This document shows positions 5,752-30,878 of a DNA stretch of 64,000 nucleotides, in pieces; the stretch's first letter is position 1, and the number at the start of each line of letters is the position of its first letter. The DNA is from Escherichia coli (lineage in GTDB: Bacteria > Pseudomonadota > Gammaproteobacteria > Enterobacterales > Enterobacteriaceae). The position numbers and the translations under genes were made by a program. Location of the stretch: assembly GCF_046105845.1 (NCBI RefSeq), contig NZ_CP151004.1, one strand, 5' to 3'. The notes beneath the pieces are model-generated. The model was not told where the DNA came from. It ran no database searches and worked only from the letters and a program-made list of their open reading frames with translations.

Positions 5752-5943
5752 AATGGCTCACTCAAGCTTGCTCACGATTGATTCCAGTAACAAACCGTAT
5801 TGTGTAATTATTTCTATAGCAGGTCGCTATATAGGCTTGTATACATCGAATAATTTGAAAATCAAAGAGATAGGTAGATTTTCACTCGAAAGTAGTATTA
5901 CGTGTAAGTGAGGAGTAATTATTGTTCGGTATCAAAGGGAGAC

Positions 5944-5969
5944 AAAAAAAGCGCCCGCAGGCGCTTTTT
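5944..5969 (-). terminator. Rho-independent terminator downstream of serS
   Basis: Perfect palindrome aaaaagcgcc-cgca-ggcgcttttt flanked by A and T runs, just past the serS stop. Confidence 0.7.
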
Positions 5970-5989
5970 AGATTCAGAAAAATTGGGTA

Positions 5990-20777: not shown

Positions 20778-20865
20778 GGTGAGGTGTCCGAGTGGCTGAA
20801 GGAGCACGCCTGGAAAGTGTGTATACGGCAACGTATCGGGGGTTCGAATCCCCCCCTCACCGCCA
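20778..20865 (+). tRNA. serW: tRNA-Ser (anticodon GGA), 88 nt with long variable arm, encoded CCA
   Basis: Acceptor stem GGTGAGG/CCTCACC, anticodon loop cuGGAaa, T-arm gggggttcgaatccccc, genomic CCA end. Confidence 0.95.
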
Positions 20866-20908: not shown

Positions 20909-21025
20909 CATATTGCACTCCAGGGGGGATGAGAAGCCCCGACCGGGGTTCGACAACTGGCGCAGCCAGTTGGACAGACCACGAACACAGTGAGTGGGCT
21001 GCCCGCAGGGCGAGCGAAGCGAGTC

Positions 21026-21088
21026 AATCCCCCCTCACCGCCATATTTAAAGAAAAGCTCGTACGAAAGTACGAGTTTTTTTTCGCAT
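21026..21088 (+). repeat. Direct duplicate of serW 3' end (last ~21 nt) plus its terminator
   Basis: aatcccccctcaccgccatat...gtacgaaagtacgag-T8 repeats 20847..20917 with a few substitutions; period about 179 bp. Confidence 0.7.
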
Positions 21089-21321
21089 TTTATCTGCCTG
21101 TACGGCAGTGAACGGTATAAAAATCGAGTTTTTCTTTCGGTTGGCTTTCTAAGCTGCCTGTACGGCAGTGAACTCAAATACTACACGTTTAGTCCGTTAT
21201 TAATAAAGCAAAACCATCTCATTTTCCTGCTGCCACCCTTTTTTATTCTTACCTTCCAGCACCATTAATTATCAACAACTTACCTTCACCTCCAAAAATA
21301 GGGTTTTCACCGCCCCAGCCT

Positions 21322-24632: not shown

Positions 24633-26579
24633 TTACTCTCGTGCCAGAGCATCTACTGGATCCAGTCGTGCCGCATTTCGTGCGGGTAACCAGCCAAATA
24701 AAATCCCGGTGACCGTCGAGCAGAGAAACGCCAGCAGCAGCGCCAAAGGTGAAAAACCAATCTCCCAGCCGGGTAAGAAAAGCTGCAAGGTGAAAGCAAT
24801 TAACAGTGACAGTGTTATTCCCAACGCGCCACCGACCAGGCAAACCAGCACGGCTTCGATCAGGAACTGTTGCAACACATCACTTGCTCGCGCACCTACA
24901 GCCATGCGAATGCCAATTTCCCGCGTCCGCTCGGTCACTGACACCAGCATAATATTCATTACACCAATACCGCCCACCACCAGCGAAATCACCGCCACCA
25001 GCGTCAGAAACAGTTGTAAAGTACGTGTGGTCTTTTCAACGGTTTTCAAGACGCCGTCCATGTTCCAGGTAAAGAAATCCTTTTTTCCGTGGCGCAGTGA
25101 AAGTAAACGCATGAGTTGCTGTTCCGCCTCAGCGCTGTCAAATCCTTCTTTCACCCTGACAGTAATGGAGTTCAGCCACGACTGGCCCATAACTCGCCCG
25201 GACATCGTGCTGTAAGGTAGCCAGACACGCAGCACTTTACTGCTACCAAACATCGACTGTTTTTCTTCCGCCACACCAATGACTCTGGCGGGCATATTGC
25301 CGACCAGAATCACCTCGCCAACCACATCTGCTTTATGGGGGAAAAGCTGGCGGCGAGTATTACTGTCGAGAACTACGACCTGCGCACGACCGTTCAGCTG
25401 CTCCTGATTAAAGGTGTTCCCTTCACTGAAGGTCATGCCATAGACATTAAAATAATCGCCGCTCACGCCATTGGCACTGGCAGCCACATCAACATTGTTA
25501 TAACGCAGGCGCAGGTTTTGCGAGACGGCAGGTGTGGCTGAGGCGACCCACGGTTGTTTTTGGATGGCGATTAAGTCATCGTACTTCAGCGCCTGCTGAT
25601 ATTGCGGATCGTCATCGCCAAAATCTTTCCCGGGATAGACATCAATAGTATTCGTACCAATAGAACGAATATCCGCCAGCACCATTTGTTTGGCGGCGTC
25701 ACCCACCACGACAATGGAAACCACCGACGCAATACCGATAATAATCCCCAGCATGGTCAGTAAAGTACGCATTTTATTCGCTGCCAGCGCCCGCCATGCC
25801 ATCGTCAGCGCCTCGTTAAAACCGCTGACAAACTGCCGCCAGCCAGACGCCGTGTTGACAGCAGGTTCCGTCCCGCCAGCAACATTCACTTTTTCAATGG
25901 CGGGAGGATTGCGCACAATTTCGCCGTCGCGAATTTCGATCACCCTCTCGGCCTGAGCAGCGACCTGCGGATCGTGGGTAACGATAATCACCGTATGCCC
26001 GCGATCGCGCAGCTGATGCAGGATCGCCATCACCTCTTCGCCAGAATGGCTGTCCAGTGCGCCGGTTGGTTCATCGGCAAGAATTACCTGACCGCCGTTC
26101 ATCAATGCCCGCGCGATGCTGACGCGCTGTTGCTGACCACCCGAAAGCTGTGCCGGATAATACTCTGTACGGTCTTCCAGCCCCAGTCGTTGCAGCAACT
26201 CCTGGGCGCGAAGCAGCCGCTGTTTCCGCTCAAGACCGGCATAGACGGCGGGTACTTCAACGTTCTGCTCGGCGGTTAAATGCGAAAGCAAATGGTAACG
26301 CTGGAAAATAAAGCCGAAATGCTCGCGGCGCAGTTGCGCCAGCGCATCGGCGTCCAGCGTGGCAACATCCTGACCGGCTACGCGATAGGTGCCGCTGGTG
26401 GCCTTATCCAGGCAGCCGAGAATATTCATTAGGGTCGATTTACCGGAACCCGAAGCGCCGACAATCGCCACCATCTCACCAGCATAAATATCGAGGGTGA
26501 TGCCCTTCAGCACCTCAACCTGCTCATCACCGGCAGGATAGCTGCGACGAATATCCTTTAATTCGAGCAAGGGCGTCAT
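24633..26579 (-). CDS. macB: Macrolide/peptide export ABC transporter MacB (ATPase-permease fusion)
   Basis: 648 aa; N-terminal ABC ATPase ([17 protein letters not shown]) plus FtsX-like permease. Confidence 0.95.
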
Positions 26580-27691
26580 TGTGCAGCTCCTGGTTTGGCC
26601 TCACCAATCACCACTTCATCGCCCGCTTCCAGCCCTTTGACAATCTCAACATCGGTATCGTTACGTGCGCCAATCGTCACTTCACGCTCGCGTGTTTCAC
26701 CATTACGCAACAATTTGACTTTATAACGATTATCGCCAACCGGATCGCCTAACGCCGACAGAGGGATCGTCAGCACATTTTTCACATCGGTGAGCTGAAT
26801 ATGCACTTGCGCAGTCATATCCAGCCGCAGCAAACCATTGGGGTTGGGGACTTCAAAACGGGCGTAATAGAAAATAGCGTCGTTAACCTTTTCCGGCGTC
26901 GGTAGTACATCCTTGATTTGCCCCTCGTAGCGCGTCAGTGGATCGCCAAGCACCGTAAACCAGGCTTTTTGCCCCGGCTTCAGGTGGATTACATCCGCTT
27001 CAGAAACCTGCGCTTTTACCAGCATGGTGCTCATATCTGCCAGCGTCAGAATGTTCGGTGCTTGTTGTGCGGCAATCACCGTCTGGCCTTGCAGAGTAGT
27101 GATTTGCGTGACTTCCCCGGCCATCGGAGCAACGATGCGGGTGTAATCGAGATTGGTTTTAGCCGTATCGAGAGAGGCCTGATTGCGCTTGATTTGCGCG
27201 TCAATGGTGCCAATTTGCGCCTGTTTCACAGCCATCTCCGTCGCGGCGGTATCGAGATCCTGCTGTGAAACCGCTTGCGTTTGTGCAAGACGTTGCTGAC
27301 GGGAATACGTCACCCGCGCCAGTTTCAGCTCCGCTTCCGCCTGCTGCCGCTGCGCGCGTAGCTCCATCAGCGTTGCTTCCACCTCCTTAATCTGGTTTTC
27401 AGCCTGTTCAGGATCAATAACCCCTAAAAGCTGGTCTTTTTTTACTTTATCACCAATCGCCACCGACAGCGTTTTCAACTGACCGCTGACCTGCGCGCCC
27501 ACATCAACCTTACGCAGCGCGTCCAGCTTTCCGGTCGCCAGCACGCTTTGCTGTAAATCACCGGGGCGCACAATCAGCGTCTGATAAGTCGGCACGGGTG
27601 CGTTAAGAATTCTCCATAACGTAATCAGCCCGGCAATGACTATCACCAGCGCAATAACGTAACGCTTCTTCACGGTTTTCCGCTTTTTCAT
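26576..27691 (-). CDS. macA: Membrane fusion protein MacA
   Basis: ORF 26576..27718; start at internal ATG gives [21 protein letters not shown]..., 371 aa; 4-bp overlap with macB start. Confidence 0.9.
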
Positions 27692-27805
27692 AAATATTCT
27701 GAATACTCCATATGCCAATCCGGGTCATTAACTTCAACGAAATATCAACAAAACCCTAAAATTTACGTTAGTAATCACACTATTGATGTTTGGTTAAGAT
27801 ACGCA

Positions 27806-28798
27806 ATGGTGAAATCGACGTCATGTATAACCATTGATTTCATGAATATGTCGCAGCTAACTGAACGGACCTTTACGTCATCTGAATCTCTCAGCAGCCT
27901 GTCACTTTTTCTTAGTCTGGCACGTGGACAGTGTCGGCCGGGTAAATTCTGGCATCGCCGTAGTTTTCGCCAGAAATTTTTGCTGCGCTCGTTGATTATG
28001 CCGCGTTTAAGCGTTGAGTGGATGAACGAACTTTCCCACTGGCCCAATCTCAATGTGTTGTTAACGCGCCAGCCGCGACTGCCTGTGCGTCTGCATCGCC
28101 CTTACCTTGCGGCGAATCTTAGCCGTAAGCAATTGCTGGAGGCGTTACGTTACCATTATGCGTTACTCCGCGGGTGTATGTCGGCGGAAGAATTCAGCTT
28201 ATATTTGAATACCCCCGGGCTGCAACTGGCGAAGCTGGAAGGCAAAAACGGCGAGCAGTTCACACTTGAGCTGACCATGATGATCTCAATGGATAAAGAA
28301 GGTGACAGCACAATCCTGTTCCGCAACAGCGAAGGTATTCCTCTGGCAGAGATCACGTTTACCCTGTGTGAATATCAGGGGAAAAGAACGATGTTTATTG
28401 GCGGACTGCAAGGCGCAAAATGGGAAATTCCACATCAGGAAATCCAGAATGCGACGAAAGCCTGCCACGGGCTATTTCCTAAACGCCTCGTGATGGAAGC
28501 GGCCTGTCTGTTTGCCCAACGTTTGCAGGTAAAGCAGATCATTGCCGTCAGCAATGAAACACATATTTACCGCAGCCTGCGTTATCGCGATAAAGAAGGC
28601 AAGATCCATGCTGATTACAACGCTTTCTGGGAGTCGGTTGGCGGCGTATGTGATGCTGAATGCCATTACCGCCTTCCGGCACAGATAGCACGAAAAGAGA
28701 TTGCCGAAATCGCCAGTAAAAAACGGGCTGAATACCGTCGGCGCTATGAGATGCTCGACGCTATTCAGCCACAAATGGCCACGATGTTTCGCGGTTAA
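27806..28798 (+). CDS. ybjX: VirK/YbjX-family protein (DUF535)
   Basis: 330-aa ORF in the conserved position between macA and ybjD; exact start uncertain (ATG candidates at 27806, 27842, 27848). Confidence 0.8.
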   Translation: MVKSTSCITIDFMNMSQLTERTFTSSESLSSLSLFLSLARGQCRPGKFWHRRSFRQKFLLRSLIMPRLSVEWMNELSHWPNLNVLLTRQPRLPVRLHRPYLAANLSRKQLLEALRYHYALLRGCMSAEEFSLYLNTPGLQLAKLEGKNGEQFTLELTMMISMDKEGDSTILFRNSEGIPLAEITFTLCEYQGKRTMFIGGLQGAKWEIPHQEIQNATKACHGLFPKRLVMEAACLFAQRLQVKQIIAVSNETHIYRSLRYRDKEGKIHADYNAFWESVGGVCDAECHYRLPAQIARKEIAEIASKKRAEYRRRYEMLDAIQPQMATMFRG

Positions 28799-30453
28799 TC
28801 CGCGCGACCGCGCGCCAGCCACAGCACGCGTGAGAACATTTTTTTCAGCAGCGTCGGTACGGAGTCCACACCACGACGTCCGGCCTCCATTGCCACTTCA
28901 ATGGCAAGATCGGGTTTGGAAGAGCGATGGATCGCTTTCGAGATAATTTTGCGCAGATTCATCGGTACATTTTCCGGGATTTGCGCCACGCGGTGGAACA
29001 CATCGGAAAATCCCTGGCGATACATAAAATGTTCCATATCCAGCGCCGGTAACGCCGTTAAATGTTCTCGTTCGGCTTCCCGATCGTTATTCAACAGGCT
29101 GCGTACCGTAGCGGCATATTTCTTCCCTGCTTCATCGCCATCGACCAGTACATGCCATTCAATCCCCATTCGGCGGGCAAATTTAACCAGTGGCTTTAGC
29201 CCGGACTGGGCAAACTCAATGACCTTGATTCCTTCGGCATCAAAATGATGTCCGCACTGACGCGCCAGTTCATTGATAACCCAGGTTTCCGTTTCGCCTT
29301 CCACCAGCAGCCAGCAGCGTGCAAACAGCGATGACGGACGATTAAAACGAATGTGGAAAGAGATGCGTCGGCTGTCTTCGGTACTCAAACCACTCGGTCC
29401 CAGACGCCAGGCGGCAACGCGCGAGGACTCACGTACCAGTCGGCAAATATGCTCTACCGGCGTTAACGAAAGCAACTCACCCGAGTTGGTGGTGGCAATG
29501 CGCTGCAATGGCAGAAGATTCAACAGATGCCAGGCAACTGAAAGCATAATGGGGTGTAAACGGGTTTCTGGATCTTCGATCAGCAACAATGGACGGGCGT
29601 CTTTATCCAGTCGCAATGTGCCTTTTGCCTGCAACAAAGTAGCAAACAGGCCGAGCAAAATAACCCGATACGAGCGCCCTCCTGGTCGGTCAATCATCCG
29701 GTTGATGATATCCAGATAGCGCCAGCTTCGTTGCTCATTGCTGGCTCGCCGCCGCATTAAACGATATCGCGCCTGTCCGGCCCCCTGCTCAGAGAAATAA
29801 TGCTCTAGCAGCTGTACCATTGCGGAAAGTCCCTGACGAATCTGCCCATCAGAGAGATTTTGCGGATGTGAGGATAACTCACGGGCGAGGAAATCGAGCT
29901 GGCGCGCGGTGACTTCCACATTAGGGACATTTGGCACCGTGCCGTTACGAATACGGCGCATAAAACGGGCATCACGCAAGCGCAGCACCGGCATTAAACG
30001 CACCAGATGGCGTGCCTGATCGTTAATATCCTCGACATCAATCGGATGTCCGTCTTTATCGAGAAAACTGCGCAGTGTCATCACGCTGCCGTCTTCCGCA
30101 CTCTCCCCTTCCAGACGATAAAAAATACGGTGATAGCCATCGGTGCATGGCGTCCAGCACGCTTCCAGCGGCCGATAACGGCGAACCCGATGTCGGCCTG
30201 GCAACGATTCGCGGAAGGTCAAAATAATATGCAGATGATGTTCTCGCCCGTTGATATCTCCCGGCGGGAACCAGAAATCGTCGCGCTCAAAATGGTAGAG
30301 ATCTGATTCTGGCGATAGCAGCAGAGTTAAGGCGTCCAGCAAGCTGGATTTACCCCACGCGTTCTCCCCAATCAGGACGTTGTTTTGTTCCAGCATCAAC
30401 GACAAACGGTTGATACCGCGAAAACCCACAATTTCAACGCGCTCAAGAATCAT
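28795..30453 (-). CDS. ybjD: OLD-family putative nuclease YbjD (N-terminal ABC-type ATPase, C-terminal Toprim-like region)
   Basis: 552 aa; Walker A GENAWGKSS at the N-terminus; recognised as YbjD; stop overlaps the ybjX stop (shared TTAA). Confidence 0.85.
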   Translation of the reverse strand: MILERVEIVGFRGINRLSLMLEQNNVLIGENAWGKSSLLDALTLLLSPESDLYHFERDDFWFPPGDINGREHHLHIILTFRESLPGRHRVRRYRPLEACWTPCTDGYHRIFYRLEGESAEDGSVMTLRSFLDKDGHPIDVEDINDQARHLVRLMPVLRLRDARFMRRIRNGTVPNVPNVEVTARQLDFLARELSSHPQNLSDGQIRQGLSAMVQLLEHYFSEQGAGQARYRLMRRRASNEQRSWRYLDIINRMIDRPGGRSYRVILLGLFATLLQAKGTLRLDKDARPLLLIEDPETRLHPIMLSVAWHLLNLLPLQRIATTNSGELLSLTPVEHICRLVRESSRVAAWRLGPSGLSTEDSRRISFHIRFNRPSSLFARCWLLVEGETETWVINELARQCGHHFDAEGIKVIEFAQSGLKPLVKFARRMGIEWHVLVDGDEAGKKYAATVRSLLNNDREAEREHLTALPALDMEHFMYRQGFSDVFHRVAQIPENVPMNLRKIISKAIHRSSKPDLAIEVAMEAGRRGVDSVPTLLKKMFSRVLWLARGRAD

Positions 30454-30878
30454 ATCCCCTCCAGAAATATGTGACTTATCCTTTACGCTGGCAGTATAAC
30501 GGGAAAGGCCATGCTAATACGTGATGACATCACATTTAAGCATGGCAAATGTCTGAAAAATGAGCGAATAATCGCGTTATACTCCCTCTTGCTGATAAGC
30601 CTGCAAAAACAACAAAATCAAATAATTAGCATGATAAATTATTTTTTATTACGCCTAAAGGATTAAATCTTTTGCTTGCACTACACTGTCAATCAGACAA
30701 ATGACTATATGGGGCAACCCGCTGTTGCCCTAAATCAAATTTACTGGATTTATTTATCTGGTGAATGACTCGCCTTCGTTTTTAAAATAGCCGCGCATTA
30801 TTTCCGTCGTCACTTTTTTACGACGACCCTATAAAACGACCATATTTTTCACAGGGTCAATTTTTAATTGAGGTGGAT

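Follow-up and report, generated by a model that had tools for sequence, protein, structure and literature searches.

Nucleases of the overcoming lysogenization defect (OLD) family are now central to several defence systems, including Gabija, retrons and PARIS. In the survey of Schiltz et al. (2019), the YbjD protein of Escherichia coli was the query that defined the family, and it was placed in Class 1, whose members are single isolated genes (PMC6755086). Here we describe ybjD as it occurs in a 64,000-nucleotide stretch of E. coli DNA (contig NZ_CP151004.1 of assembly GCF_046105845.1; hereafter the window), where it lies at 28795..30453 on the minus strand as an ATG-start open reading frame of 552 codons plus stop. 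Its sequence predicts an intact stand-alone OLD-family enzyme, in which an ABC-type ATPase is fused to a Toprim nuclease. The gene itself is not a new finding: it is known, recently studied and annotated, with the RefSeq label ‘ybjD: ATP-dependent endonuclease’ in complete E. coli genomes. What we add are modest refinements, namely a modelled build that is Class 2-like, inheritance as a core gene, and the strongest evolutionary constraint on the nuclease site.

Published work distinguishes the OLD classes by structure in addition to gene context. In Class 2, a helical domain contributes metal-B ligands at its first helix together with a catalytic lysine; in Burkholderia pseudomallei (Bp) OLD these are T506/E508 and K562 (PMC6755086). 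The Class 1 enzyme of Thermus scotoductus has neither the insert-3 helix nor the helical domain, and uses R487, seven residues after E480; an asparagine at the H-loop position has also been reported for Class 1 OLD homologues (PMC7049728). In P2 Old, K550 likewise lies seven residues after E543. A further member, Cran1, is a Class 5 OLD of the Sulfolobales that is vertically inherited and has a cell-cycle role and no clear antiviral role (PMC12796447).

Experiments on YbjD were reported in a micropublication of May 2026, in which the new name oldB was proposed and the gene was found to be transcribed (PMC13261556). The Keio ybjD knockout was unchanged against 68 BASEL phages, whereas arabinose-induced over-expression from pBAD lowered the plaquing of Bas18 and Bas20 and gave smaller plaques of Bas64-68. 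A construct of residues 1-377, lacking the Toprim domain, acted like full-length YbjD, and the ATPase part was needed. The Walker A mutant K35A retained the phenotype with greater toxicity, and recBC-ts cells were not killed by YbjD, unlike with P2 Old (all PMC13261556). An earlier note on this DNA, made from the sequence alone, had described the function as uncharacterised, which no longer wholly holds now that such plaque assays are in print; those it had suggested have given no change in the knockout and narrow effects on over-expression. Elsewhere in the literature, the aqpZ-ybjD spacer serves as a neutral insertion site, and a Gabija-like helicase-endonuclease pair in SGI1 has been annotated with the label ‘ybjD’; the names DUF2813, b0876 and STM0907 led to nothing useful on phenotype. 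The gene is one of the E. coli genes, about 15% of the total, for which no physiological role is yet known.

The membership of YbjD in the OLD family of ATPase-Toprim fusions, which the earlier note had given as established, is secure. Pfam assigns DUF2813 to residues 1-375 (E 1.5e-160) and OLD-like_TOPRIM (PF20469) to residues 376-440 (E 3.8e-16). Among the PADLOC defence-protein models, those of GajA gave the strongest matches (best 268 bits), with P2-type Old weaker at 84 bits. A profile built from 48 diverse YbjD relatives matched the solved GajA (E 2e-20) and T. scotoductus OLD (E 4e-19), and the full-length AlphaFold2 (AF2) model, with a mean predicted local distance difference test score of 84.7, had GajA, Thermus OLD and retron-Eco8 OLD as its top fold matches. 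NCBIfam contains no model specific to YbjD; only the P-loop stretch was matched, far below the cut-offs. YbjD has both halves that characterize an OLD protein: at the N-terminus, an ABC-type ATPase bearing Walker A, Walker B and a D-loop histidine and, at the C-terminus, a Toprim domain with a conserved glutamate and a DxD motif.

The ABC-type ATPase region comprises residues 1-377 (29323..30453, minus strand, as for all parts of ybjD below), a region supported by Pfam, the family profile and the AF2 model. The profile aligns residues 1-397 to GajA (E 2e-20), and the AF2 model is confident throughout the region except in two loops. The N-terminal residues are MILERVEIVGFRGINRLSLMLEQNNVLIGENAWGKSS, and the Walker A motif or P-loop, GENAWGKSS, which the earlier note had correctly picked out in this 552-residue frame, occupies residues 29-37 (30343..30369) and includes K35. 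When conservation was scored over the 48 relatives, which cover 28-90% identity, G29 and E30 were invariant, and position 35 was lysine in 43, arginine in four and serine in one. The Walker B/D-loop motif, LLLIEDPETRLHP, lies at residues 289-301 (29551..29589), as located by alignment with the GajA sequence IEEPEISLH. Its core, IEDPETRLHP, holds E293, E296 and H300 (conserved in 44, 44 and 47 of the 48, respectively), aligns to both GajA and Thermus OLD, and has the same E293-H300 spacing as E276-H283 of the Thermus enzyme. In the aligned H-loop region, TTNSGE (residues 321-326; 29476..29493), N323 replaces the usual histidine; this position is asparagine in 34/48 relatives and histidine in 7/48.

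Between these motifs, the ATPase head carries a helical insertion at residues ~161-284 (29602..29973), with AF2 helices over 177-277 and low-confidence loops at 163-178 and 222-244. A degenerate signature-like sequence, GGRSYR, lies inside it at residues 258-263. By analogy with Thermus OLD, the insertion is probably a dimerisation domain (PMC7049728).

The Toprim nuclease core, supported by PF20469 and by profile alignments, spans residues 378-471 (29041..29322). Based on alignment, the metal A ligands would be E385, D438 and D440, and the first metal B ligand E389; these residues align to VEGDAE and TDLD of Bp OLD and to VEGYGD and HDED of Thermus OLD. In the profile alignments, E385/E389 fall on Bp E400/E404 and Thermus E377/D381, and D438-G-D440 on the DxD motifs D455/D457 and D431/D433, respectively, the roles of the Bp and Thermus ligands being those described for these enzymes (PMC6755086, PMC7049728). 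The C-terminal helical domain follows at residues 472-552 (28798..29040), with D472 and E474, the putative further metal B ligands, at its start and K513-P514 inside it. E385, G386, E387, E389, D438, G439, D440, D472, E474, K513 and P514 are invariant in 48/48 relatives. Together with the PF20469 match, the invariance of the aligned ligands confirms the Toprim domain and catalytic residues that the earlier note had left for checking.

The earlier note had also called YbjD a class 1 OLD protein, and this stands for the gene context, a stand-alone gene with no conserved partner, but not for the C-terminal build. The AF2 models place a helix at residues 458-464, between alpha3 and beta4, and further helices over residues 473-547, where a Class 1 protein would have neither insert-3 helix nor helical domain. 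Seven positions past E474, an invariant glycine, G481, stands in place of arginine or lysine; R479 is variable, other basic residues nearby vary among the 48 relatives, and the invariant K513-P514 lies 39 residues past E474. The YbjD model also fits the Thermus structure (6p74) more poorly than that of Bp OLD (6nk8). A Toprim domain followed by a helical domain that supplies metal-B ligands and a catalytic lysine is the Class 2 arrangement, and the models suggest that YbjD has it; the helicase gene that adjoins Class 2 genes of the Gabija type was absent from every ybjD locus examined. YbjD thus appears to be Class 1 in its gene context and Class 2-like in its build, with the GajA/Bp OLD type of C-terminal region and its invariant lysine, a case in which context-based class labels do not match the structural type.

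Purifying selection on ybjD is strong, and it is strongest on the nuclease part. Mean column conservation is highest in the Toprim domain (0.64), intermediate in the ATPase lobes (0.42-0.55) and lowest in the helical insertion (0.30), and the nonsynonymous substitution rate (dN) of the Toprim region was below that of the ATPase region in all four species comparisons. For the whole gene, the ratio of nonsynonymous to synonymous rates (dN/dS) came to 0.015 in the comparison with E. albertii and to 0.03-0.04 in those with Salmonella, Citrobacter and Enterobacter, which is equal to or below the values of its housekeeping neighbours. Since the most constrained domain is the one that the over-expression phenotype can dispense with, this suggests that the phenotype does not report what selection preserves in YbjD.

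The gene is also inherited vertically, as a housekeeping gene is. At a cut-off of at least 95% DNA identity, 5424 of 5426 complete E. coli genomes carry it, at 95-99.3% identity. A one-genome-per-species scan gave 496 confirmed relatives, and the best 80 of these, again one genome per species, were used for locus analyses. All 80 belong to the Enterobacterales, from Escherichia to Serratia and Pectobacterium (66-99% protein identity), and all 80 loci lie in one region, hcp-lysO-(aqpZ)-ybjD-(ybjX)-macAB, with individual flanking genes missing or off-contig in some of them. The identity of each YbjD to the window protein tracks that of MacB, Hcp and LysO (r 0.93-0.95; 64-70 species), with similar means. 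A patchy, horizontally moving distribution of the kind that marks defence systems is therefore not what ybjD presents, being core, syntenic and co-diverging with its neighbours, and ybjD is unlikely to be a mobile anti-phage module of the usual kind. The term ‘domesticated’, used in the earlier note, is well supported by the conserved synteny, the vertical descent and the very low dN/dS.

Two side observations were made on these genomes. The closest of the 5,426 complete E. coli genomes matched the ybjD DNA of the window at 99.3%, and only 23 genomes reached at least 99%; the source strain seems to come from a thinly sampled lineage. In Salmonella and several other genera, aqpZ is missing between ybjD and lysO, which makes the aquaporin gene a variable insert where the rest of the region is fixed.

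Relatives at a greater distance (28-54% identity) come from Vibrio, Motilimonas, Pasteurellaceae, Succinivibrionaceae, Tatumella, a betaproteobacterium and a metagenome-assembled genome of the Acidobacteria. They sit amid housekeeping genes, with neighbours such as glycogen phosphorylase, phosphotransferase system, isoamylase, major facilitator superfamily, Band-7 or dxs genes. No helicase gene was found beside ybjD in the 80 Enterobacterales loci or in 10 distant contexts, and no reverse transcriptase or AriB-like gene in the window, the 80 loci or the 10 distant contexts. A hidden helicase partner was also considered where the downstream context differs, and was rejected: Pectobacterium and Mangrovibacter carry cspD-clpS-clpA there. 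Some relatives with DUF2813 and Toprim domains are long, at 1,187-1,867 residues (P0149, P0162, P0163, P0165, P0175 and P0196, with shorter variants P0138 and P0141); P0162, from Anaerobiospirillum, is the sole long form with named cluster members. In the long relatives the ATPase head is interrupted by very large insertions and the C-terminus is drawn out into a long tail; the insertions may be reminiscent of the SMC/Rad50 coiled coils.

Searches of mobile elements agree with this distribution. Among 50,697 phage records, no YbjD-type gene was found, the sole real match being P2 old, which is 27.8% identical across one third of the protein. Of 194 matching records in a plasmid collection, 180 were below 60% identity to ybjD, and all 12 of the plasmid matches listed (86-99.8% identity) were either megabase-sized records or records also carrying ybjX; these appear to be chromosomal DNA that was deposited as plasmid. 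A mobile origin of ybjD was consequently set aside, as the searches yielded only P2 old, other distant OLD genes and these chromosome-like ‘plasmid’ matches.

Based on the residues described above and on the better-studied family members, a working mechanism can be proposed. YbjD would form oligomers by way of its ATPase insertion, in the manner of Thermus OLD and GajA, and ATP bound at K35/E293/H300 would keep the enzyme restrained, as in GajA. Restraint by ATP binding would fit both the greater toxicity of K35A and the asparagine in the H-loop, which is more suggestive of a switch than of a rapid hydrolase. Once released, the Toprim and helical domains could cut nucleic acid by two-metal catalysis, with metal A held by E385/D438/D440, metal B by E389/D472/E474, and the transition state stabilised by K513.

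Housekeeping-like inheritance, together with a nuclease site that is the most constrained part of the protein, makes a conserved cellular job the likeliest native role; on balance, we favour nucleic-acid maintenance or basal surveillance of DNA or RNA. The published anti-phage effects of over-expression stem from the ATPase half and are probably no guide to the native function. Several points weigh against this view. No native phenotype of ybjD is on record, and the gene is non-essential (PMC13261556). The sole phenotypes seen are anti-phage ones, though over-expression was needed for them (PMC13261556), and conservation is compatible with a defence role. The family is scattered outside the Enterobacterales, where horizontal transfer at a deeper level is possible, and dS is saturated in the more distant ybjD comparisons. 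The equivalence of K513 to Bp K562 is a putative one drawn from the models, and the oligomeric state of YbjD is likewise a predicted one. In addition, other OLD/Toprim enzymes are reported to cut tRNA, and the substrate of YbjD may be DNA or RNA.

The alternative that survives best is that ybjD (oldB) is a genuine single-gene anti-phage system, which detects infection and halts the phage, perhaps through abortive infection. Its place in the core genome would then reflect the small cost of low native expression, and the phages that it naturally targets would lie outside the tested panel. This accounts for the lower plaquing of Bas18 and Bas20 and the shrunken Bas64-68 plaques, which were obtained at a non-toxic inducer level (PMC13261556), and it agrees with the fact that all well-studied bacterial OLD proteins (P2 Old, Vibrio cholerae (Vc) OLD, GajA and Eco8) are defence effectors and that the strongest PADLOC matches of YbjD are to GajA models. 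It does less well with the unchanged knockout against 68 phages (PMC13261556), a result of a kind that the earlier note had listed among its refuting conditions and that weakens a simple defence reading. The phenotype is obtained without the nuclease domain, although no part of the protein is more constrained; fixed synteny, vertical descent and so low a dN/dS (0.015-0.04) are not typical of defence genes; ybjD is absent from the phage records, and its strongest matches in the plasmid collection look chromosomal. Additionally, recBC-ts cells are not killed by YbjD as they are by P2 Old (PMC13261556). We therefore regard a dedicated defence function as possible but rather doubtful.

It appears unlikely that YbjD is a Gabija-type (Class 2) nuclease working in trans with an unlinked helicase, for example one of the superfamily 1 UvrD/Rep-like type. 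The modelled Class 2 build of its C-terminal region, the stronger PADLOC matches to GajA than to Old (268 against 84 bits) and a Walker B/D-loop motif almost identical to that of GajA would all be expected of such an enzyme, but no helicase adjoins ybjD in the 80 Enterobacterales loci or the 10 distant contexts, and the over-expression phenotypes arise without an added partner (PMC13261556).

A functional unit of ybjD with one of its neighbours is less likely still. The gene order in the window is macB-macA (minus strand), ybjX (plus), ybjD (minus), aqpZ, lysO and hcp (all plus), the same order that RefSeq annotates in the best-matching E. coli genome; as the earlier note had observed, ybjD sits among core genes between ybjX and aqpZ, and no helicase gene was found among its neighbours in the window. 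The convergent ybjX (VirK/DUF535; 27842..28798, plus strand; Pfam DUF535 E 1.6e-101) is included as context, with no functional part assigned to it. Its stop codon TAA (28796-28798) overlaps the ybjD stop, TTA at 28795-28797 as read on the minus strand, in a shared TTAA (28795..28798), which the earlier note had rightly described; the same four-nucleotide overlap is present in Salmonella, and the TTAA is kept in E. coli, E. albertii and Salmonella. This conservation, and the recognition of ybjD-ybjX as a convergent overlapping transcript pair in RNA sequencing work (PMC12288877), could point to a unit of the two genes. However, 25 of the 80 species have no ybjX beside ybjD, and the dN/dS of ybjX is 3-8 times higher. 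At values of 0.08-0.27, ybjX evolves unusually fast for its neighbourhood, keeping 45-60% identity where YbjD, MacB and LysO keep 81-91%. As an obligate partner of ybjD it was rejected on these grounds: absence in 25/80 species, convergent orientation and much faster evolution.

The other version of this idea joins ybjD to the macAB efflux genes, with which it is co-directional across the Enterobacterales, and one distant relative does stand in a macB-like/OEP/ybjD-like row with a four-nucleotide overlap. Against it, macAB is not beside ybjD in Pectobacterium, Brenneria, Mangrovibacter or any of the other distant contexts, and shared descent explains the adjacency within the Enterobacterales. 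In the window itself (24633-30453), ybjD is co-directional with macAB, with ybjX antisense between them. The row in question (locus L091, 1-4062) holds a relative of 35% identity directly after genes for a MacB-like permease and an outer-membrane factor on the same strand, and it may be a coincidence, as the other distant contexts show no such row. That ybjD is the decaying remnant of an old defence system without present function is barely credible, since the lack of a knockout phenotype so far (PMC13261556) and the degenerate ABC signature motif are set against a reading frame of full length in 5424/5426 genomes, a dN/dS of 0.015-0.04, catalytic residues that are all invariant over 28-90% identity and transcription of the gene (PMC13261556), and decay is contradicted by the selection data.

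The sequence upstream of ybjD offers few regulatory features. A Shine-Dalgarno sequence, GGAGG (30458..30462, minus strand), lies four nucleotides before the ATG and is conserved in most of the 14 species aligned. The sole conserved block further upstream across these 14 Enterobacterales is CGCTATACTGCTG, which contains a candidate -10 hexamer, TATACT (30493..30498, minus strand); this is a prediction only, with no evident -35 element paired to it, and a consensus promoter scan upstream of ybjD made no call, TATACT included. The ybjD-aqpZ spacer was thus abandoned as a source of regulatory clues, the alignment having given only the TATACT block and the Shine-Dalgarno sequence; no regulator site conserved beyond Escherichia was obvious in it, although no motif search (for LexA, for example) was made. 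The Rfam scan matched no RNA family at the locus. The spacer also contains a perfect 13-bp palindrome, GTGATGACATCAC, at 30521-30533, ~70 nucleotides upstream of the ybjD start; it is nearly kept in E. albertii and is not conserved beyond Escherichia, and it resembles a CRP half-site pair, but with the wrong spacing.

Elsewhere in the window, a single CRISPR-DR4 repeat match (21146-21173, minus strand, 50 bits) lies just past tRNA-Ser(GGA) (20778-20865) and an RtT-like element (20909-21043). Type I-F CRISPR arrays of E. coli have their site in the clpA-infA interval, so the match may be a leftover repeat. Two Rfam small RNAs are present at full length, STnc130 (5842-5976, 140 bits) and RybB (61209-61287, 104 bits).

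Compared with named systems, YbjD shares its ATPase and Toprim modules with PARIS AriA/AriB (Class 4) and retron-Eco8 OLD (Class 3). PARIS splits these modules into two proteins and the retron ties them to a reverse transcriptase and multicopy single-stranded DNA (msDNA), neither of which applies at ybjD. With the Class 1 proteins (P2 Old, T. scotoductus OLD 6p74 and Vc OLD), ybjD has in common a stand-alone gene, the same ATPase-Toprim fusion, the same metal-A and first metal-B ligands and the asparagine variant of the H-loop; like Vc OLD, YbjD acts independently of RecBCD (PMC13261556). The Class 2 nucleases used for comparison were GajA of Bacillus cereus Gabija (PDB 8sm3, 8u7i, 8x5i) and the C-terminal regions of B. 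pseudomallei and Xanthomonas campestris OLD (6nk8, 6njw). YbjD differs from them in having no GajB/UvrD-like helicase gene beside it in any context examined, in being a vertically inherited core gene outside defence islands, in a shorter helical domain with fewer helices (~80 against ~90 residues), and in an H-loop with asparagine instead of histidine; sequence identity to them is merely 12-21%.

The closest parallel in inheritance is Cran1. Both are OLD proteins conserved and vertically inherited across one order, with a helical insertion or extension around the Toprim domain and intact catalytic sites, and the resemblance in inheritance favours a cellular role for YbjD. Cran1 differs in being archaeal, essential, cell-cycle regulated and encoded in a putative operon with a membrane-protein gene, whereas ybjD is non-essential and, as far as visible, monocistronic; homology to Cran1 was compared at the family level only. 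We tentatively suggest that the YbjD/DUF2813 clade could be a bacterial counterpart of Cran1: a GajA-type nuclease that lost, or never had, a helicase partner and became fixed as a housekeeping enzyme of the Enterobacterales and related Gammaproteobacteria, its Toprim domain acting on the cell’s own DNA or RNA and its anti-phage effects being a by-product of over-producing the ATPase head. If so, the Toprim domain would act in repair, replication-associated nicking or RNA processing. A Gabija-like OLD build has here been kept as a core gene, with selection heaviest on the very site that the published phenotype can spare, a pattern that steers experiments from plaque assays towards genome or RNA maintenance.

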